A stretch of DNA of 60,287 nt, filler included, from Globobulimina sp. (taxonomy: Eukaryota), in the NCBI GenBank assembly GCA_003354225.1. It is 7 parts of 7 records of this genome, joined end to end, with 100 filler letters (N's around TTAATTAATTAA, not from the genome) between each part and the next. Parts side by side here need not be neighbours in the genome. Positions count along the whole stretch, not along the records: positions 1 to 8,582 come from PIVH01000075.1; 6 more parts are not named here. The stretch is one strand, 5' to 3'. The translations under genes were made by a program, and so were the position numbers. Positions within the stretch are counted from its first letter, which is position 1. Each line of letters starts with the position of its first letter. The notes under the pieces were generated by a model. That model searched no databases. It was given only the letters and a program-made list of their open reading frames with translations, and had not been told where the DNA came from. This document shows, in pieces, positions 843-51,851 of the stretch.

Positions 843-3062
843 TTGTTATTTATGAAACGCATAATAAATGATAATCAGTGTCATCAAAGATGTAAAAAAT
901 TTAAACACAACATTATAAATCAAAATAGTAAGACGTATCGATATTATTATGCAGATTGCTATCGCATTAAATATAATCCAAATTTTGAAAAAGAAATACA
1001 AAATGTAATAAATAATTCTAAATCAAAAATTATTATTCAAAAAACAAAATTTGGACAAATTGAAAATAATCATAATAACAAAAATATTAAACTCTATTAT
1101 GATGGATATGAATTTATTTCGAATGGATCTAATTTTATTTGCACAAAATGTAAATTTGGGTTACAATTATGCAGACAAAACAATATTGAATTGGTATTTA
1201 GCAATCAATCTGATCATAACTGCATTAACTTTAGAGATTCATCATTATTATCAAAATTATTTTCAGAAATAATTATAACAGAAATTGAATATAATATTAA
1301 GAATGACAGTTATACATCAATAACAAATCATTACGACAATGTGTATTTTAAATATTTAAATAAACATAAAGAAATGGATCTGGATATAGTTTTAAGGAAG
1401 AAACTGGTGGTGGAAAAAAGATTAAGAAAGCAGCGTGAATTTCAATCAGTTAGAGAAAGTAGTGTACAATCATTTATTAAAAAGGGAATTCATAAAAAAA
1501 TATTAAAATCAGTATTCAAAAGTGAAGAAACAGATATTTTAGTAATACCAAATAAAGACATAAATAATGATTCTGTATTTATTACAAGTATATTTCATTT
1601 GAAAATGTTAGGAGGTGGTAATGGTGCATTAGGTGATGGAACATTTGCTTTAAATGTGTCATGTTTGACAAAACATGAACAAATATTTAAGATAAATGTA
1701 ACATATTATTCAAAAACTGCAGCAAATAATCATTCAAAACGAAATAAAAACCATTTCAAAAGAGCTGCTGTTTATTTTTGTGGCATTGCGATTTTACAAA
1801 AGAAAGATATACCTCAATATGAATGGTTGTTTGGGGTAATTAATAATTTGTTTATACAAAATGGTATAAAAATAAAATTTACAACATACATTAGCGATTT
1901 TGAATGGGCACAAAGAAAAGCTTGGAAGAAGATATTTCCGTTAATTTTAACACAAGGTGAAACATTTCATTGGAATGGATGTATTTGGAAAGCTATACAA
2001 AGATTTCATTTAAAATGTTTATATGAAGTTAAGAAATATAGTAAAGATAATCAAATCAAATATGATTTTCGTTTTAGAGCAATTATTGAAATAATTTGGA
2101 CATTTCCATATATTCCGAAACAAAGAATATTAATTGTTTGGAAAAATGTTGTTATGTTATTTCTCGAACTTAGTCTAGTACTAAATGATATTGATATATC
2201 CAAAGGTATTATTCAATTAATATGTTATATACAAAATCAATGGATGGAAATACATGTTCATGGTTGTAGAAAAAGTCAATGGAAATTTGATGATTGGATT
2301 ATATACCAATGTTTAATTACATCAAATAATGCAACAGAAGCATTAAACAGACACCATATGTCAAACATTGAAAAACATCCAGAAATATTTAAATTTTTTT
2401 ATTGGTCATTTCGTGAATTACAAAAATCCAAACATAATTTTATACAAGATCAACAACATCCAAACAGTGTTTCTTTGCAACGAGAAAAAATTATTATCAA
2501 AAACGAAAGAGCCAATAAAATGGCAGAAACAATATTAAATACTAACGATGAAAAAGTAATAATGGATGAGGTGTTAAAATTTAGTTTTGTATTAACAGAG
2601 TATAGAGGAAAAATAAATATATATAATAGATATAAAACTACAACTTATAATATTGAAACAAATACAAATAATTCGGATATAAACTTAGATTTGAAACAAT
2701 TTTGTAACAGTAAAGAAATTAAAATAATTGGACAATATGATGGGAAATCTATTGAAGTTGAAGGACAAAATTGTGATAAACAACTAAATGTCAATTATAT
2801 ATATACAATGAATATTGATAAAAAATTATATACTAAATTAGAATTAGGTACAACATGGGTGGTCACAAAAAGTATAAACAAAAATTGGCCAAAAATGAGA
2901 AAGAATATGATAATTAAATTTAAAAATGGAAATAATATCATCGAAAGAAAAGTATTTAAAATTACAATCATACCTGGATATAATCACAATAAAAATAAGA
3001 ATGATAAATTTGCTTTAAAATTTGAGTTGACACCAATATTACCAAAATTTGATTTATCCTAA
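843..3062 (+). CDS. Mutator/MULE-family DDE transposase
   Basis: Catalytic motifs GDGTF (D1), ISDFE (D2), GETFHW (CxxH position) and TSNNATEALN (E). FLYWCH/WRKY-like zinc finger upstream (YDGYEF...CTKC...HNC). First ATG at 852. Confidence 0.85.
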   Translation: MLFMKRIINDNQCHQRCKKFKHNIINQNSKTYRYYYADCYRIKYNPNFEKEIQNVINNSKSKIIIQKTKFGQIENNHNNKNIKLYYDGYEFISNGSNFICTKCKFGLQLCRQNNIELVFSNQSDHNCINFRDSSLLSKLFSEIIITEIEYNIKNDSYTSITNHYDNVYFKYLNKHKEMDLDIVLRKKLVVEKRLRKQREFQSVRESSVQSFIKKGIHKKILKSVFKSEETDILVIPNKDINNDSVFITSIFHLKMLGGGNGALGDGTFALNVSCLTKHEQIFKINVTYYSKTAANNHSKRNKNHFKRAAVYFCGIAILQKKDIPQYEWLFGVINNLFIQNGIKIKFTTYISDFEWAQRKAWKKIFPLILTQGETFHWNGCIWKAIQRFHLKCLYEVKKYSKDNQIKYDFRFRAIIEIIWTFPYIPKQRILIVWKNVVMLFLELSLVLNDIDISKGIIQLICYIQNQWMEIHVHGCRKSQWKFDDWIIYQCLITSNNATEALNRHHMSNIEKHPEIFKFFYWSFRELQKSKHNFIQDQQHPNSVSLQREKIIIKNERANKMAETILNTNDEKVIMDEVLKFSFVLTEYRGKINIYNRYKTTTYNIETNTNNSDINLDLKQFCNSKEIKIIGQYDGKSIEVEGQNCDKQLNVNYIYTMNIDKKLYTKLELGTTWVVTKSINKNWPKMRKNMIIKFKNGNNIIERKVFKITIIPGYNHNKNKNDKFALKFELTPILPKFDLS

Positions 3063-3114: not shown

Positions 3115-3184
3115 ACTCATAATTTCTTCTTTTTTTAGAATCCATTTATAACTTTTCTCTATTATTACATATAAACTCATAACT
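3115..3184 (+). promoter_or_regulatory. Duplicated ~70-bp upstream block, copy 1
   Basis: Closely matches 4354..4423; ends about 60 bp before the ATG at 3243. Confidence 0.7.
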
Positions 3185-3242
3185 TTAATTTACTTATACT
3201 AATAATTTAACTCGATTAGAGTCACAGTTTCACAACAATAAA

Positions 3243-4322
3243 ATGGAGATATTGCCAGATGTAATTATTCAAATGATATTGTCATTCGATGAATATTGTA
3301 TAGAATATAGATTTGTAAGTAAAGTATTCAAAAACGCATCAGATAAAAATAATAGAATGAAATTAAAACAAAGAAAACAAACAATTAATGATGATCATGA
3401 AGCAAATATACATATTAAAAATACATATTTTGTTGATGGTGTTGATGCGGAATATTGGATTATTGATAAAAAACGTACTCAATTAAAAGATAAAGAAATT
3501 ACATTAGGATATAAAGGTCCAATTAATAATATTATGGATGCGATCGAGAATTGTAAATCTGGAGATACATTGCTGATTTATGATGGAAAATACAAAATTA
3601 AACATAAATTTGTCGGAGCAATCAGCCAATTAAATAAAATATCATTTATTGGAATGGGAGCAAATGTTATTTTTGAACAAATTCCGGCATTAATTTTTGA
3701 AGAAAATAATAATCATAGTACTATTTTTGTGAAAAATGATGTATATTTCAAAAACATTCGTTTTGATTGTGAAGATACCGGTCAGCTTGGATTAATCTGT
3801 GTAGTAGATAACGGTAACCTTTGGATGGAAAATTGTAAAATGTCATTTACTGGTTGCCCATTTGACAGGTATTGTAATGGAATTGTTATGCATGAATCGA
3901 TGGGGAAAAAACAGTCCATATACTTAAAACACTGTGAGTTTGAGGATCTATTGTGTGCTGTGTCTATATTTGCAGGAATAACTGGTGCGACTATCTTGGG
4001 ATGTAAATTTACAAATTGTGGATTCATGGAAGATGGATACGGAACACCAACTATTGCTGTACAAACATGGGAAGATGAATCTTCAATTTTTAAGAGCAAA
4101 ATTAGAATTATTGGTAATGAAGTGTTTGATGATGATATTGGGAAATGGATTGCATTTTGTTCTTATCAAAAGTTTAACGATTGGTTTAGTGAATTTGGCT
4201 CAAGATTTATATATGAAATAAAAAATAATTCAATCAAAGGGACAAATGCAATATTTACAAATGTAAACAATAAACCAGAAAAGCGTAATCCTAACAAGAT
4301 TTATTTGATGACATACTTTTAA
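3243..4322 (+). CDS. F-box-like plus right-handed beta-helix protein (FBXO10/11-like architecture)
   Basis: N-terminal ILPDVIIQMILSF...FVSKVF F-box-like motif. IMDAIENCKSGDTLLIYDGKY is a typical beta-helix entry, followed by repeated NC/HCEF-type coils. Confidence 0.65.
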   Translation: MEILPDVIIQMILSFDEYCIEYRFVSKVFKNASDKNNRMKLKQRKQTINDDHEANIHIKNTYFVDGVDAEYWIIDKKRTQLKDKEITLGYKGPINNIMDAIENCKSGDTLLIYDGKYKIKHKFVGAISQLNKISFIGMGANVIFEQIPALIFEENNNHSTIFVKNDVYFKNIRFDCEDTGQLGLICVVDNGNLWMENCKMSFTGCPFDRYCNGIVMHESMGKKQSIYLKHCEFEDLLCAVSIFAGITGATILGCKFTNCGFMEDGYGTPTIAVQTWEDESSIFKSKIRIIGNEVFDDDIGKWIAFCSYQKFNDWFSEFGSRFIYEIKNNSIKGTNAIFTNVNNKPEKRNPNKIYLMTYF

Positions 4323-4353: not shown

Positions 4354-4423
4354 ACTCATAATTCTATCTTTTTTTAGAATATATTTATACCTTTTCTCTA
4401 TTATTACAAATAAACTCATAATT
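4354..4423 (+). promoter_or_regulatory. Duplicated ~70-bp upstream block, copy 2
   Basis: Closely matches 3115..3184; ends about 70 bp before the ATG at 4493. Confidence 0.7.
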
Positions 4424-4492: not shown

Positions 4493-5704
4493 ATGTTATC
4501 AGTAGGAAAGAATCATGTACTTAATGGACAATTTAAGATTATAATGGAAGGTGATTACAAAGGAAAATGCGTCAGTTTGGTACAAAACACACGTACAGAA
4601 ATGTGTAGACTTATTTTAGAGATACCGTATGGTAATGTTGGTCAAATTATTACAATCACAAATGAAAGAGTTCTATCAACAAAGATTTGTTTACGCAAAT
4701 TGATGCAAGCAAACATTTATACCACATTTGTTTATCCTGAATCAGCAGCACAGACAATTACAATTGATGAAATTGATTATTCTAAATATGTAACATTATT
4801 TAATGAATATCCCAATAAAAAATTAGGATTATTATCAGCAAAAGAATTATTAGAAAACAAATCCAAACAACGATTCTGTTTCTTCGCAAAATTTATCGAA
4901 AGTGATATTCGTAATGGACATTTATTTATAAATGTTCTTGTAAATGATATTAAAGTATCGGTATTAAAATGGAATTATTCAGATACAATTAATTTTCCAG
5001 TTAATATATCATATTTATTATTTTTTAATGTAAGTGTTGGTGAACTTGGTGACAGAAAATTTATTCGTATGAATAAAGATTCCAGTGTATTTTATCAATT
5101 TGACACTGTTATTAAAAATAAAATTGTTGAGCATTGTGGAAGATGGAATTCATTACAAAGTGTTGATCAACGATTTTATAAGAAACAAAATTTGACACAG
5201 GTTAATGGTTTACAAGAAATGAAAATAACAGTAGAAGAGGAAGAAAAAGATTGTAAATTACCAGTAATTGATATCAAAGTGAATGCAGACAGATTAAAGT
5301 TTAGTATTTATACAAGACACAACACAAATGGATGTAACCAAGTGTCGATAGTTGGTGAAGAATGTAACAAATGTTATGAACCATTAGGTGATGTTGACAA
5401 ATCAAACTGGTGGCCATTTATGAACTTACAAATAAGTATTGGTGATGATGATATCAATGTAAAATTAAGTAATTCATCAATTAAACAAATATTAGAGAAA
5501 TGTGGTTATCTTGTTAATAAAAAATTAAATAAAATATTTAATGTATTATCAGATTCATTTTCAATGGAGTTAAGCAATGTAGAAGATAAAGTGTTTGAGT
5601 ATTTTGAAAATAATTCATCAATGAAAGCTGAATTGATTGCGAAACCAAGTGGTAATTCAAATTATCCAATGCAATATACAATTTCAAAATTTATATTCGT
5701 CTAA
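4493..5704 (+). CDS. Putative RPA70-like multi-OB-fold ssDNA-binding protein
   Basis: OB-like segment DIKVSVLKW...FFNVSVGELGDRKFIRMNKDSSV. Zinc-finger-like insert IYTRHNTNGC...CNKC followed by MNLQISIGD resembles RPA70 DBD-C. Confidence 0.55.
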   Translation: MLSVGKNHVLNGQFKIIMEGDYKGKCVSLVQNTRTEMCRLILEIPYGNVGQIITITNERVLSTKICLRKLMQANIYTTFVYPESAAQTITIDEIDYSKYVTLFNEYPNKKLGLLSAKELLENKSKQRFCFFAKFIESDIRNGHLFINVLVNDIKVSVLKWNYSDTINFPVNISYLLFFNVSVGELGDRKFIRMNKDSSVFYQFDTVIKNKIVEHCGRWNSLQSVDQRFYKKQNLTQVNGLQEMKITVEEEEKDCKLPVIDIKVNADRLKFSIYTRHNTNGCNQVSIVGEECNKCYEPLGDVDKSNWWPFMNLQISIGDDDINVKLSNSSIKQILEKCGYLVNKKLNKIFNVLSDSFSMELSNVEDKVFEYFENNSSMKAELIAKPSGNSNYPMQYTISKFIFV

Positions 5705-6196: not shown

Positions 6197-6367
6197 GCAA
6201 TTTAGCTGTGTTTGTTGTGAGATGCGCGATGCAATTTGGTTGTGTTTGCTGCCTAAGATTCGCGATGCAATTTGGCTGTGTTTGATGTGAGATTCACGGT
6301 GCAATTTGGCTGTGTTTGGTGTCTAAGATTCGCGATGCAATTTGGCTGTGTTTGATTCGCGATGCAA
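6197..6367. repeat. Tandem array of alternating 34/36-bp units (GCAATTTGGCTGTGTTTG core)
   Basis: Units start at 6197, 6231, 6267, 6301 and 6337 (34, 36, 34, 36, 27 bp), giving a 70-bp higher-order dimer. Confidence 0.95.
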
Positions 6368-6554
6368 GACAGTTTGCAGGTATTGATTTCACCGGTCAGC
6401 AATAGTGATTCAATGTGTATGTATGTTTGAGATATTTTATAGAAATACATCAACATAAATTTTATCTATTAAAATTTCATAATTATTGGTTGAGTGATAT
6501 TTATATCGTTATATTCAATTATGATTCTAATTTAAGATTATATTTTTAGTTTAA

Positions 6555-6773
6555 TTTTTCCAAATAACACCTCCATCACCTCCCAAACCTCCTCCTCAAC
6601 GACCAGGACCTCAACGACTAGGACCTGCACGACCTCCTCCATCTCCTCCTCAACGACCAGGTCCTCCACGACCTCCCAAACATCCTCCTCAACGAATTGA
6701 CACTGAAACAAATACAAAAGCCATAAAATATGAACAAGAAGAAGAAATTGGTGATTGTAGAAACAGATATTAA
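6555..6773 (+). pseudogene. Pro-rich coding-like segment, probable frameshifted N-terminus of the J-domain gene
   Basis: ATG-less open frame reading PPSPPKPPPQRPGP... Removing one A from the run at 6725-6728 joins it in frame to the ORF at 6730. Confidence 0.45.
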
Positions 6774-7148
6774 TGATGAGATACCAAGAAAAAGAAGAAA
6801 ACTCAATTCCTTGAATGTAGAATATTTTATGTCTGCAAATTTTTATGAAATGTTTGAATTAACAGAAAACAATTTTAACCAAACAATACTTAAAAAACAA
6901 TATCATGTTAAAGCAAAACTATTTCATCCAGATAAATGGGTAAATGGAACTGAAGAGCAACAAAAAAAAAGTGAACAAATATTTAAAATATTACAACAAG
7001 CATTTGATACATTAAGTGATGATAAAAAAAGAGCATATTATAATAATAATTCACATTTAAATGGAGATAAAGATAATAGTTTTACTTTATCTGAAGATGA
7101 AGATAGTATTGACAGATATGAGGATGAAGATAGTGATATTGATACTGT
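6730..7148 (+). CDS. DnaJ J-domain with basic NLS-like motif; probable N-terminal part of the helicase gene
   Basis: NFYEMF...KKQYHVKAKLFHPDK...FKILQQAFDTLSDDKKRAYYN with HPD intact; PRKRRK motif. The listed ORF turns into M/V/I nonsense after 7148 because the acidic tract is read out of frame. Confidence 0.85.
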
Positions 7149-8582
7149 GGTAATGATACATCTGAAAATAATGGTGATAATGATAATGATGGTGATAATG
7201 AAGATGAAGATGGTGATATTGATGACAATGATAATGGAGATGAAGACGGTGATAGTGATACATCTGAAAATAAAGAAAATGACATTGAATTTAAAAAAGA
7301 ATTAAATAAAATAATAAACAATGATTATACATTAACACAATTAAGAAATGGACCAATCGGTTTAGCAATATTAATTGGTAATTTAAGAAATGATATTTGT
7401 TTTCATGACAATGAATATATCGGGTTTAATGATGTTAGGCGTATTTATACTGCATTTTCAAAAGCAACATTAAGAGTTATCATATATAAATATGGAATTG
7501 ATATATGTGTACAAATGCTACAAAAATATCCTCAATTTAAAAGAGATGAATCACATGGCGTATTAAATATTCCATCATTAATTTCTCGTTTTAAAAACCC
7601 TCGAAGTTCAGTTGGTTTTATAAACAATATATTATCATGTATTGAAAAATGGCATGACAAAGAAAATGGACAAAAATTAAATGCAAAAATGAACAGAATT
7701 GACGGTGAATATCCAATTAAAGGTGGTCGTAAAATTAATATAAAAACAAAACAAATTACTGATAGAACAAAAAAAGATTATTTTAGTTATGAAATACCAT
7801 TGACATATTTACCGAATTTACAAGATTGTAATAACAAATATGGCAATTTTTTAAAGAATATCCATCGCAAACAAGAACATTTCGAATTTTTTAGAATGAT
7901 TTTAGGATATACATTTAAAGGTGGTATCAAAGCGTGGGAAATTATTTTTTGGTTTATAAATAATATGGGTGGCAATGGTAAATCATTAAATATCAAATGT
8001 TTAGAAATACCATTTGGGTTCTGGATAAGAGATATGGATCCACGTTTGATAAACAAAAAATCAAAAATTAATATTGGTGCGGAATTAAACAAATTAAAAA
8101 ATTGTTTGTTAGCAAAATTTGTTGAAACAAAAAATATTGAACCAGACGAAGAAGCATTGAAAAGATACAGTGGTGGTGATACTTTAAATCCAAGAGATTG
8201 TAATCAAAAAGGGTCGAAAACACAAGAACTTAAACCATCTCATTCATTGTGGATGATTGGACAAGACTTATCAAATTTCCAATTCGAAGATCAAGCTTTA
8301 CAAAGACGAAATTCTGTATTTCCATGTGTAACATATTTTAGATCACCTGGACAAAAAGGATATGATGCAAATGATCCAAATTGTATTATACCGGATAAAA
8401 ATATAAAGTCGGAAATTTTAGAACAAGGGGATCATATTTTAACATTTGTTATTAATTGCTGTAATGATGAACTCGGATGGGAACAATTAGGTAATGATTT
8501 TTGGAGTTGTCGACCAAAAGATTTTGATAACGATGATTTAAATGTAAACTCAAATGATTTACATAAATTTATTGCAGAGAAA
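7143..8582 (+). CDS. D5/P4-primase-type superfamily 3 helicase, 3' end cut by contig end
   Basis: D5_N-like motif KINIKTKQITDRTKKDYF, ILGYTFKG, Walker A GGNGKS, Walker B region LAKFVET, LKRYSGGDTLNPR, and DQALQRR arginine finger. The frame is open from 7143 with no ATG until 7515. Confidence 0.85.
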
Positions 8583-8682
8583 NNNNNNNNNNNNNNNNNN
8601 NNNNNNNNNNNNNNNNNNNNNNNNNNTTAATTAATTAANNNNNNNNNNNNNNNNNNNNNNNNNNNNNNNNNNNNNNNNNNNN
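8583..8682. other. Artificial contig spacer
   Basis: N-run, TTAATTAATTAA, N-run; 100 bp. Confidence 0.99.
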
Positions 8683-11361
8683 TGCGGAGGGAGATGGCGA
8701 CGGCGAGGTAGACAATGTGGATGTTAATATTTGTTTCTTTGCGTTGGAAAGCGGAGAGATTGGCGATTCGGGAGATATTGATTGGCTTATTCTGATTAAA
8801 GAGGACTGCTGCTCCTCCTCCGCCGATATCGATGGAGGCAGTGCCAACGGCAACGGCAAAGGCAAAGGCAATGGAGGTGGCGGCGGAGGAGTGTTGGTGC
8901 TGGTGGTCGATGACGATATTATCGGCTCAATCATTGGCGGTGCTATTTGTGCGATATTGTCCATTTTATGGTTATGGTTATGATGGTGATGGTGGCCATG
9001 ATGATGATGGCTATGATGATGACTATGATGATGGTGATGACTGCGATGTCGTTTAAGTGAGCGTGGATTATTAATTTTATTTAATAATAATATGGTCTTT
9101 GCTTGTATATTTAATCTGTTTTGATGTAATTTGTTGATCTGTTCAGTGGTAAATTGTATATGTTTCTGTTGATTTGTATATTCCAATCGTTTGTAGTCCA
9201 CAACGTGTTGGATCATTGACATTAAAAGTTTTGGATTTGGCGGTTTGCCAACAAAAGGATGGCTGATTAACTCTTTTAAAGATAATCGTTTTGTAAAAAT
9301 TTGATTTAATAAATCCAACGAATCGTTAGAGACATAATCCAATAAACAATTGGTTTGTAATAAATTAAATACGCCGCACTCTTGTAAAGATTTAAAATTT
9401 ATATCCAATTCTTTTTCATTTATATTTTTCCCCGTATTTATATCTTTCATTGTGCTCAAATCGATTTTACAATTTTTATTCCCGTTTAAATAGCCATACT
9501 GGCTCGGATTCTGTTGGTCCTTTTCAATATAAAATGGTGTGTCGTACGGCAAGGTGCAGGTTAACATGCAAAATAAGACGATGCCCAATGCGTAAATGTC
9601 TTCCTTCGAGGCATCATAAGCCTGCGCATATTTATATTTTAAAAATAATGCAGATTCAGGCGACATATATCGACATTTTCCCGGATAGGTTGAAACTGTA
9701 AAATCGTACTTTTCAAACTCATATTGATTCGGATTCGGATTCGGATTTTGATTCTGATTCTGATGTAATTTGCAGATGGTGGCGCGACCAAAATCAATTA
9801 GTTTGACCAGAAAATGACCGTTGGAATCAAAATGAAGAACAAAATTCTCGCATGAAATGTCTAAGTGTGCAATGCCTTGGCAATGCAAGATATAAATGGC
9901 CTGCACCATCTGTTGAAATACGAATTTCACCAATTCAATATATGCGTTACTGCCATCTTGAGAGAGGTGCAGCGAATCTCTATAAACATTGATTGACAAT
10001 TCACGCAATTTATTGTTTTTTATTTGATCAATTCGATAAATGTTTAATTTCTTATCTCTATAAATAATGCCATGATAGGCATCGATAAATAATAATAATT
10101 CGCCACAATTTGCAAATTCAGTCACCATAAAATAGCATTTCTTATCAACATCTTCCCAGTGCTCAATTAATTTTATTATATTCTTGTATGGTTCCTGCAG
10201 CCAGGCCAATAACGGCTTATTTAATAACAGGTTGTGATACGCATTCCGATAGATCAATTTTGTGATTTTTATTTCTTGGATGGCCTTCTCTTTCACCGGG
10301 ATGCCCGACAATGTTATGCCTAAATCGCAGCATTGCTTATCGTAATATTTTATTGCCAGTGTCGGTTTTGACGAGTAATTATTGATTAAATTGGTGACAT
10401 TGGGCCCGCCGTTGCCATTTATCACCTGTTCAATGAAACTGTCGCAATATTCGTAGCCAATGTATATGCATCCTTGCAACGTCTTGGCCTCCACTCCCAA
10501 ATTTAAATAATATTTGCCAGTTTTACACGAAAGGATGTATGAACCAATCGGTAAGCGGATCGAATCAAACTTGGAGACACTCTGATTATCCTCATTATGA
10601 TTATGCATATGATTGCAATTGTGATTATTGCGGTTTTTAGTGTATGTAATTAACCATTTTAAGTTTTTCTGCGCTTCGTGAACTTGCTGGGCCCACCGTT
10701 GCATTGTAAATAAAAATTGTAATCTCCGCGATAAGGTTGATATCTTTGTAGCAAATGAGATGTCGTTAATATTTGATTGGTTTAATAATTGTTTATATAT
10801 TTGTTGCTGTAATTGTTGGTCCGATACACTCAGTTTTTTCTCATCAATCAGAGCGTTTAACTGTTTTGTCGACACATGTAATAATTTCACGACATTCTCA
10901 TTCTCGTTATCATTGTCATTGTCATTGTCATCGTCATTCTCATTATCAAAGTCATCCTCAATGCCATACTCGTTATCATTATCATTATCATTATCATTTT
11001 CAATCTCTTGTTGAATATTAATATTATCCACATTTTTCCGACCCTGCTTTTTTGGGGGATTCGTCACAGAGATATTTGGTGAATTATTATTATTATTATT
11101 ATTATTTTGTTGTTGTCTTTGCATTTGTTCCATTTGCTGCATTTGCTGCAGTTGCATTTGTTGCAGTTGTTGAATTTGTTGAAGCCGTAATTGTTGGAGC
11201 TGTATTTGTTGTGCATATGTACTGCTTTGTTGGTATTGTTGCTGTGGCATTGCTTGCATTTGTTGCATTTGTTGCATTTGTCTTAGTTGCTCCATATACT
11301 GAAGTTCTTGCATGTATTGTTCATGCTGTTGTGGTGTCAATTGAGCCATTTGAGGATTCAT
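8683..11361 (-). CDS. Ser/Thr protein kinase with Gln-rich N-terminus and His/Pro-rich C-terminus, 3' truncated
   Basis: LAIKYY (beta-3 Lys), HLDISCEN catalytic loop, DFG, GKCRYMSPE, DIYALG. Confidence 0.9.
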
Positions 11362-11550
11362 TTTTTTCCTTTTTTTTTGTTTACGTATATGTTTTCACGA
11401 AATGAGAGCAATTTGAAGCTAAAGCTAAACGATGACTAGGTCACTTGGAAGGAAAATATAATGTTAAAAACGAAAACGATACTTAATCCTTAGATTTCTA
11501 AAAAAAACATGCTCGCAAGCATAATAATTGTATTTTGTCAGTAAAATCGA

Positions 11551-11870: not shown

Positions 11871-12268
11871 GGCGGAGCGAAGCGACTCATCCATGGATAT
11901 ATGGTATTTATTAATGTATTTATGGCGGCGACGGAGTCGCCTCATCAATGGATATCGAATTTATTATGGTACATATGGGCGGCGACGGAGTCGCATCAAC
12001 GACCGATATAAAACGTATTTTTATGGTATCTATGGGCGGCGACGGAGTCGCCTCATTGGTCGAAACATATTTTATTATGGTATCTATGGATTATTGTATC
12101 TATGGCGGCGACGAAGTCGCCTTATCGGTTTCGCGAAACCGAATTTATTATGGTATCTATTGCGGCGACGGAGTCGCCTTATCGATAGAGGCGAATTTAT
12201 TATGTGATGAATAGCTATTATGGTATCTATGGGCGGCGACGAAGTCGCCTCAGCGGTCGAAACCGATT
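11871..12268. repeat. Degenerate tandem array with GGCGAC-G(G/A)A-GTCGCC hairpin cores
   Basis: Cores at 11927, 11981, 12038, 12107, 12164 and 12235, each preceded by TATGGTATCTATGG-like sequence. Periods 54-71 bp. A degenerate first unit lies near 11871. Confidence 0.92.
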
Positions 12269-12277
12269 TTTTCTATT

Positions 12278-17243: not shown

Positions 17244-17343
17244 NNNNNNNNNNNNNNNNNNNNNNNNNNNNNNNNNNNNNNNNNNNNTTAATTAATTAAN
17301 NNNNNNNNNNNNNNNNNNNNNNNNNNNNNNNNNNNNNNNNNNN
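17244..17343. other. Artificial contig spacer
   Basis: N-run, TTAATTAATTAA, N-run; 100 bp. Confidence 0.99.
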
Positions 17344-25899: not shown

Positions 25900-25999
25900 N
25901 NNNNNNNNNNNNNNNNNNNNNNNNNNNNNNNNNNNNNNNNNNNTTAATTAATTAANNNNNNNNNNNNNNNNNNNNNNNNNNNNNNNNNNNNNNNNNNNN
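25900..25999. other. Artificial contig spacer
   Basis: N-run, TTAATTAATTAA, N-run; 100 bp. Confidence 0.99.
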
Positions 26000-34549: not shown

Positions 34550-34649
34550 NNNNNNNNNNNNNNNNNNNNNNNNNNNNNNNNNNNNNNNNNNNNTTAATTA
34601 ATTAANNNNNNNNNNNNNNNNNNNNNNNNNNNNNNNNNNNNNNNNNNNN
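34550..34649. other. Artificial contig spacer
   Basis: N-run, TTAATTAATTAA, N-run; 100 bp. Confidence 0.99.
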
Positions 34650-43172: not shown

Positions 43173-43272
43173 NNNNNNNNNNNNNNNNNNNNNNNNNNNN
43201 NNNNNNNNNNNNNNNNTTAATTAATTAANNNNNNNNNNNNNNNNNNNNNNNNNNNNNNNNNNNNNNNNNNNN
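43173..43272. other. Artificial contig spacer
   Basis: N-run, TTAATTAATTAA, N-run; 100 bp. Confidence 0.99.
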
Positions 43273-51751: not shown

Positions 51752-51851
51752 NNNNNNNNNNNNNNNNNNNNNNNNNNNNNNNNNNNNNNNNNNNNTTAAT
51801 TAATTAANNNNNNNNNNNNNNNNNNNNNNNNNNNNNNNNNNNNNNNNNNNN
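51752..51851. other. Artificial contig spacer
   Basis: N-run, TTAATTAATTAA, N-run; 100 bp. Confidence 0.99.

Follow-up and report, generated by a model that had tools for sequence, protein, structure and literature searches.

The window analysed here, 60,287 bases of DNA from the protist Globobulimina sp. (GenBank assembly GCA_003354225.1), consists of seven contigs of ~8.4-8.6 kb each, set in order of falling length. The first contig (1-8582; PIVH01000075.1) carries, at 6555-8582, a J domain followed by a superfamily 3 (SF3) helicase, encoded on the plus strand in two reading frames that an acidic tract bridges. An initial annotation of this locus likened the arrangement to polyomavirus large T antigen (LT) and proposed that both halves belong to one polypeptide. 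A single J-linker-helicase protein is the best reading of the locus. Its helicase is of the D5/P4 type, and this copy is broken in the linker. The features in question are these:

6555-6726, plus strand: Pro-codon-rich degenerate tandem repeat (units of 15 and 39 nucleotides, nt) 5' of the start codon, probably noncoding for the J-helicase
6730-7148, plus strand: ATG, basic stretches resembling a nuclear localization signal (NLS), J domain and start of the acidic linker (codon starts 1 mod 3; from Pfam DnaJ, the PDB and motifs)
7057-7268, plus strand: acidic linker of low complexity, rich in Asp, Glu and Asn, within which the frame changes (from composition and tandem repeats)
7135-7143, plus strand: site at which this copy is 16 nt shorter than a read-derived contig (record 6 of run X1)
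7269-7835, plus strand: D5_N-like collar, helical with small sheets, ahead of the ATPase (from AlphaFold and from Foldseek matches to C962R, D5 and E5 over 390-450 alignment columns)
7836-8582, plus strand: SF3 (D5/P4-type) ATPase core (from alignment A1, PHROG 6088 and relatives)

J domain, acidic linker and helicase

In the J frame (1 mod 3), open across 6727-7305, an ATG lies at 6730 in an A-rich context, and this copy has a stop of its own at 7303-7305. Two basic motifs, KKKK at 6736-6747 and KRRK at 6790-6801, both precede the J domain and fit the classical NLS pattern K-K/R-x-K/R. The J domain itself occupies ~6841-7047 (residues 38-106) and matches the Pfam DnaJ profile from end to end (1-63 of 63; E 6.7e-12; 45.8 bits, where the cut-off is 27.8). 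Its HPD motif is intact at residue 66 (nt 6925-6933), where it aligns with the HPD of DNAJB8; DNAJB8 (2dmx, E 3.6e-7) is also the best of the 20 distinct J-domain sequences recovered at E <= 1e-3 in a sequence search of the PDB. With a full-length fold match and the HPD in place, the J half can be assigned, as far as sequence goes, to the J-domain family (DnaJ, PF00226).

Upstream of this start, the initial annotation suggested that a single-nucleotide shift near 6727 might add a Pro-rich N-terminus. The frame concerned (6555-6773, 0 mod 3) contains no Met and begins directly after a TAA at 6552-6554, and a contig from the public sequencing run X1 (record 5) matches 6643-6961 without a difference. 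The absent Met, the preceding stop and the unchanged contig speak against the extension, which was rejected.

The helicase frame (0 mod 3) opens at 7143, directly after a TGA at 7140-7142, and continues for 480 stop-free codons to 8582. That position is the end of the contig, followed by the linker at 8583-8682, and is not the end of the gene; the C-terminal ~90-110 residues by which relatives extend past the aligned end are missing because the contig stops there. The catalytic motifs of an SF3 ATPase are present. The Walker A sequence GGNGKS contains a Lys (K238, 7980-7982) that is invariant in alignment A1, the Walker B Glu (E286, 8124-8126) is near-invariant in the same alignment, and an Arg-Arg pair lies at 8304-8309, of which R347 is invariant. 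Over the whole alignment the helicase keeps 7/7 invariant and 8/8 near-invariant columns.

Profile and structure comparisons agree on the kind of helicase. Four PHROGs families annotated as 'DNA primase' or 'DNA polymerase/primase' are matched through their C-terminal helicase halves (E 7.8e-14, 2.8e-10, 3e-5 and 5.3e-5), the best two being PHROG 6088 and PHROG 1156, respectively. In the ESM Atlas, the nearest clusters are DUF5906/D5_N helicases (0.97). A sequence search of the PDB with the helicase frame returns no match; an AlphaFold model computed from an alignment of 25 sequences (mean pLDDT 85.2, pTM 0.83) finds 211 PDB structures by Foldseek at E <= 1e-3. Top among these is the African swine fever virus (ASFV) PrimPol C962R (8iqi; E 1e-16, TMq 0.68), and the list includes vaccinia D5 (8hwf; E 1.8e-13, TMt 0.70) and mpox E5 (8xj7; E 2.5e-13). 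The PHROG, homologue and fold matches together identify a D5/P4-type collar plus SF3 ATPase, which upholds the D5-type label of the initial annotation through routes other than a direct Pfam match. No AEP or Prim-Pol primase domain is found in the N-terminus, where the J domain and acidic linker stand instead.

The acidic tract runs from one frame into the other, as had been claimed: 13 of the last 30 J-frame residues and 23 of the first 50 helicase-frame residues are Asp or Glu. Tandem repeats of 6, 12 and 18 nt lie inside the linker at 7163-7259. Evidence that the frame break is local comes from a further contig of run X1 (record 6, 1068 nt), which aligns with 6932-7164 and with 7261-7983, differing by one letter in one alignment and by none in the other. 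It covers a span of 1052 nt in this copy, a net excess of 16 nt wherever the gaps are placed; as aligned, the extra letters follow 7135 (8), 7139 (1), 7140 (3) and 7143 (4). An excess of 16 nt is +1 in frame, so it brings the J and helicase frames into register, and the apparent frameshift is explained by a 16-nt deficit in this copy. On manual reading, the 16 letters introduce no stop and lead on into the helicase frame. The frame break thus looks like a local defect, either of this copy or of the assembly. The initial annotation had restored one base near 7148; a +1 shift does join the frames, but the actual difference is of 16 nt and lies at 7135-7143. Of the two places at which it had suspected insertion or deletion errors, the one in the linker has a counterpart in the X1 contigs and the one near 6727 has none.

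Relatives and known systems

An exhaustive phmmer search of 1.84 billion representative sequences with the helicase frame yielded 1081 matches at E <= 1e-3, of which 94 reach 1e-10 or lower and 2 reach 1e-30 or lower. An 830-residue protein with 36% identity scores best (E 2.7e-40). Pfam domains were assigned to the best 150 of the 1081 matches (40 + 77 + 33 proteins), and DUF5906 is present in 103 of them and D5_N in 54. Of the 40 relatives scanned first (ranks 1-42 without P0016 and P0025), 22 have no Pfam family at all, which marks the nearest clade as divergent. Metagenome contigs of 2.8-19 kb and the transcriptome of the foraminiferan Bolivina argentea supplied the closest relatives, and for one relative cluster the source gives the name 'P4 family phage/plasmid primase-like'.

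By Pfam, at most 28 of the best 150 have a primase domain (Prim-Pol, AEP_C962R or PPL4), which leaves at least 122 without one, among them all 25 of the closest relatives scanned (ranks 1-27 without the short fragments P0016 and P0025). The initial annotation held that the J domain sits where a primase usually does. The N-terminal position is as described, but Pfam does not find a primase there in most of the best 150 relatives.

The nearest D5-like helicases (P0001-P0027; 490-830 residues, from short metagenome contigs and B. argentea) share 27-36% identity with the locus over ~250-330 residues. Like it, many have no recognisable primase, and several carry acidic N-terminal tails, short N-termini also occurring; unlike it, none has a J domain. 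The acidic tail may therefore predate capture of the J domain, a suggestion drawn from comparison of the sequences. The better-known members of the clade, D5, E5 and C962R of the Nucleocytoviricota and the P4-type primase-helicases of phages and plasmids, share the collar and SF3 fold (Foldseek E 1e-13 to 1e-16), the GK[ST] P-loop, the Walker B Glu and the Arg pair, and the C-terminal halves of the PHROG 'DNA primase' families match as well. They differ in what precedes the helicase, which here is a J domain and acidic linker with no AEP or Prim-Pol primase.

The resemblance to large T is one of layout. In both LT (simian virus 40, Merkel cell polyomavirus) and the protein proposed here, a single polypeptide carries an HPD-bearing J domain at its N-terminus, a basic motif of NLS type and, at its C-terminus, an SF3 ring-helicase ATPase. 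The J domain of LT binds Hsc70 and is required for LT-driven viral DNA replication (PMC4190541). The helicase here is nevertheless of the D5/P4 clade with a D5_N collar and not of the LT/E1 type, the linker has a strongly acidic composition, and the NLS-like motif precedes the J domain. Neither an origin-binding nor a zinc domain was detected; ahead of the ATPase the model shows a D5_N collar, and Pfam finds no LT domains. No LxCxE motif occurs in the J frame or linker; the only match, LSCIE at 7632-7646 (helicase-frame residue 164), was rejected as a candidate, since it lies inside a predicted collar helix, is not conserved in relatives and is probably a chance occurrence. A D5-clade helicase in which no origin-binding domain is detected is not an LT homologue, and the layout is convergent with LT. 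The independent origin that the initial annotation proposed is supported by the C962R, D5 and E5 folds and by relatives that carry D5_N and DUF5906.

J domains are also found outside such fusions. Stand-alone versions are reported for mimiviruses, some phycodnaviruses, molluscum contagiosum virus, salmon gill poxvirus and polyomaviruses (PMC4542343). The parallel with the present locus is that a DNA virus or element has captured a J domain, presumably for use with host Hsp70 (PMC4542343). The J proteins of large DNA viruses differ, however, in being separate genes unfused to a replicative helicase.

Rival readings of the locus

The locus might instead hold two genes, a small nuclear J protein that ends in the acidic tract and a separately translated helicase. 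The stop at 7303-7305 and the change of frame favour this arrangement, and stand-alone J proteins have precedents in large DNA viruses (PMC4542343). Yet the first ATG of the helicase frame is codon 125 (nt 7515), inside a predicted collar helix, and a start within the folded collar, combined with the TGA just upstream of the frame, indicates that the helicase frame is not a self-standing gene. The 52 J-frame residues past the break are the acidic repeat read out of frame, a hydrophobic nonsense sequence, and record 6 of X1 joins the frames; a two-gene locus is accordingly improbable. A short intron or programmed frameshifting could also join the frames in this copy. As many as 21 GT..AG pairs within 7079-7365 would leave an open joined frame, but none of the 21 has a consensus-like donor, all are 68-73% AT, like the surrounding coding sequence, and the contig with 16 additional nucleotides makes either device unnecessary. 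Both were rejected as highly improbable. There is, finally, a very small chance that the J domain and helicase derive from different loci and were joined in assembly through the low-complexity acidic repeat. The junction does lie inside a tandem repeat, the stretch is built of short unplaced contigs, and depth differs on either side of the junction. Record 6, from a second read assembly, nonetheless spans from 6932, inside the J domain, through the tract to 7983, and its 30-nt overlap with record 5 shows no mismatch.

It is unlikely, though arguable, that the fusion belongs to the past or to the sequence alone, every copy being a decaying relic of a dead element and this one a frameshifted, truncated pseudogene without present function. 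In favour are the broken reading frame of this copy, the break of the assembly within the gene, the apparent non-conservation of the motif-C Asn, and a depth that rises in steps along the gene, as expected with many partial copies. The mean word depth of the X1 contigs, a per-contig mean and not a copy count, is 3.4 at 6359-6628, 6.6 at 6643-6961, 18.1 at 6932-7983 (possibly inflated by the low-complexity tract) and 32.6 from 7954 onward. The rise fits a repeated element with extra partial copies, which would account for the assembly break inside the gene. The deepest contig (record 7, 1183 nt) places its first 629 letters on 7954-8582 and then continues for ~554 nt beyond the contig end. A 24-letter loose end before 6932, considered as a divergent copy devoid of the J N-terminus and splitting in the HPD codon, equals positions 985-1008 of the same stretch and was dismissed as a spurious placement. 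Decay is harder to reconcile with a 480-codon helicase frame that is free of stops and retains every invariant and near-invariant column of A1, with the confident fold of the AlphaFold model, and with a read-derived contig that is in frame.

Several points weigh against an intact and active fusion, the limits of the depth means among them. The J and helicase frames are out of register in this copy. Run X1 may be the sample behind the assembly, in which case its support is not independent, and over the repeat at 7165-7260 record 6 was compared by length alone (96 letters, equal), so that a stop there is possible. Record 6 by itself explains the depth of the bin 7102-7194, and no other listed contig covers the junction; two more runs of the same sample, X2 and X3, share almost no words with the locus and yield 1 and 0 placed contigs, respectively. 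The helicase frame matches no Pfam family even at E 10, D5_N, DUF5906 and Pox_D5 included. Asn replaces the first Gly of the canonical GxxxxGK[ST], a position at which the nearest relative, P0001, also has a non-Gly residue. Motif C (sensor 1), which is G-N in most relatives and T-Q-N in P0001, reads G-Q-D here, so that Gln-Asp replaces the usual Asn, with the alignment possibly one column off. The domain order, catalytic motifs and HPD are observed; Hsp70 recruitment, the oligomeric state, nuclear import and expression we infer.

The fusion has also been seen at this locus alone. DnaJ is found by Pfam in 0 of the best 150 of 1081 relatives, and an intact fusion in another organism, for which the initial annotation had recommended a search, did not emerge among them. 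A phmmer search with the J domain of the locus finds it in 0 of 155 proteins, and six-frame open reading frames (ORFs) from seven distant IMG/VR loci, retrieved with alignment A2, contain it in 0 of 7. So far the J-D5 fusion is thus known from a single case, and it could have arisen recently, by accident, within an element in decay. An IMG/VR search with the single helicase protein found no related locus, and a metagenome scan with alignment A3 found no locus. Word-index protein searches, which are weak evidence, gave no match to the helicase and none to the J ORF in longer proteins; the same kind of search with profile A1, equally weak, gave 7 matches, with DnaJ in none of the 7. Literature searches aimed at a J domain fused to a D5-type helicase found no report of one.

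Genomic setting and proposed role

The remaining features of the window are listed below.

852-3062, plus strand: ORF1, 736 residues from the first Met, with a weak match to the MULE transposase family (Pfam E 9.4e-5; 23.2 bits, under the cut-off of 27.6)
3240-4322, plus strand: ORF2, no family found
4493-5704, plus strand: ORF3, 403 residues, possible OB-fold single-stranded DNA (ssDNA)-binding protein (from ESM Atlas neighbours)
8583-8682, 17244-17343, 25900-25999, 34550-34649, 43173-43272 and 51752-51851, no strand: linkers between contigs, each N44 + TTAATTAATTAA + N44

The contigs are joined by these linkers, so genes that flank a linker are not genomic neighbours, and the setting of the J-helicase locus is that of the first contig. 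Its GC content is 26.5%, against 30.9-38.2% in the six other contigs, and its long open frames all lie on the plus strand without obvious introns. If the MULE match of ORF1 is real, a transposase lies on the same strand as the replication genes. Pfam assigns no family to ORF3, and in the ESM Atlas it lies nearest to OB-fold clusters of the POT1/MEIOB/RPA-like kind (0.91-0.95), with a recognition score of 2123 that falls under 2300 and makes the match a lead only. It contains a Cys-x-x-Cys pair, and its single-sequence AlphaFold model (pLDDT 30) is unusable. ORF3 may be the ssDNA-binding protein of the same replication module as the J-helicase. Searched by tblastn against the whole stretch, the five ORFs return self-matches only.

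Repeats occur at several places. A 68-nt sequence at 3115-3182 and 4354-4421 (90% identical) lies ~60-70 nt 5' of the start codons of ORF2 and ORF3, as a shared promoter might; 5' of the J gene and ORF1 it is not found, the scores there being no better than those of shuffled sequence. A scan for bacterial promoters and terminators was set aside as not meaningful for DNA that is eukaryote-like. A tandem repeat at 6197-6356 with a 35/70-nt unit (4.6 and 2.3 copies), in the spacer of 1 kb that precedes the J gene, is a possible origin or terminal repeat. On the next contig, four to five repeats of 47-53 nt with a GC-rich, palindrome-like core (GGCGGCGACGGAGTCGCC) lie at 11906-12270, spaced 54-197 nt apart. 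The same contig has, at 8635-11394 on the minus strand, a 919-residue open frame with a kinase-like middle and long Gln, Asn and His runs, which enters the linker and is therefore also cut at the contig end. Base composition together with these runs would fit a dictyostelid-like amoeba as host.

Low GC, intron-less ORFs on one strand, rising depth and relatives from short metagenome contigs and a foraminiferan transcriptome fit a mobile or foreign context. On balance, the evidence tilts towards a single replication protein, convergent in design with LT, of an AT-rich protist element that is mobile or virus-like, lacks introns and occurs in multiple copies. From its N-terminus the protein would comprise a basic NLS-like stretch, a J domain with HPD, an acidic linker of ~70-80 residues, a D5_N-type collar and a D5/P4-type SF3 ATPase. 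The SF3 part would act as a ring helicase that unwinds the DNA of the element. The tethered J domain might dock host Hsp70/Hsc70 through its HPD and trigger the Hsp70 ATPase beside the helicase, and the chaperone might then aid assembly, loading or recycling of the helicase complex in the nucleus, much as is reported for the LT J domain in the replication of viral DNA. Chaperones also aid the loading of papillomavirus E1 and the release of the phage lambda helicase; in the light of these precedents, loading or recycling is the likeliest role. A bolder and rather unlikely proposal, offered as speculation, is an undescribed self-replicating element of a social-amoeba-like protist that joins a Mutator-like transposase, an OB-fold ssDNA-binding protein and, as initiator, a J-domain-D5 helicase whose Hsp70-recruiting domain, evolved independently of polyomaviruses, would be needed for loading or recycling.

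A D5-type helicase with an N-terminal J domain would be a new combination, known so far from the sequence of a single truncated locus and a single set of reads. Should the fusion prove genuine and active, two unrelated SF3 lineages, the LT type and the D5/P4 type, would each have gained an N-terminal J domain. This would argue for tethering of Hsp70 to a replicative helicase as a general solution to a shared problem of nuclear DNA replicons and not a polyomavirus oddity, and the protist would offer a non-pathogenic system for the effect of chaperones on an SF3 helicase. The locus further suggests that these protists harbour a family of repeated, virus-like elements as yet uncharacterised.

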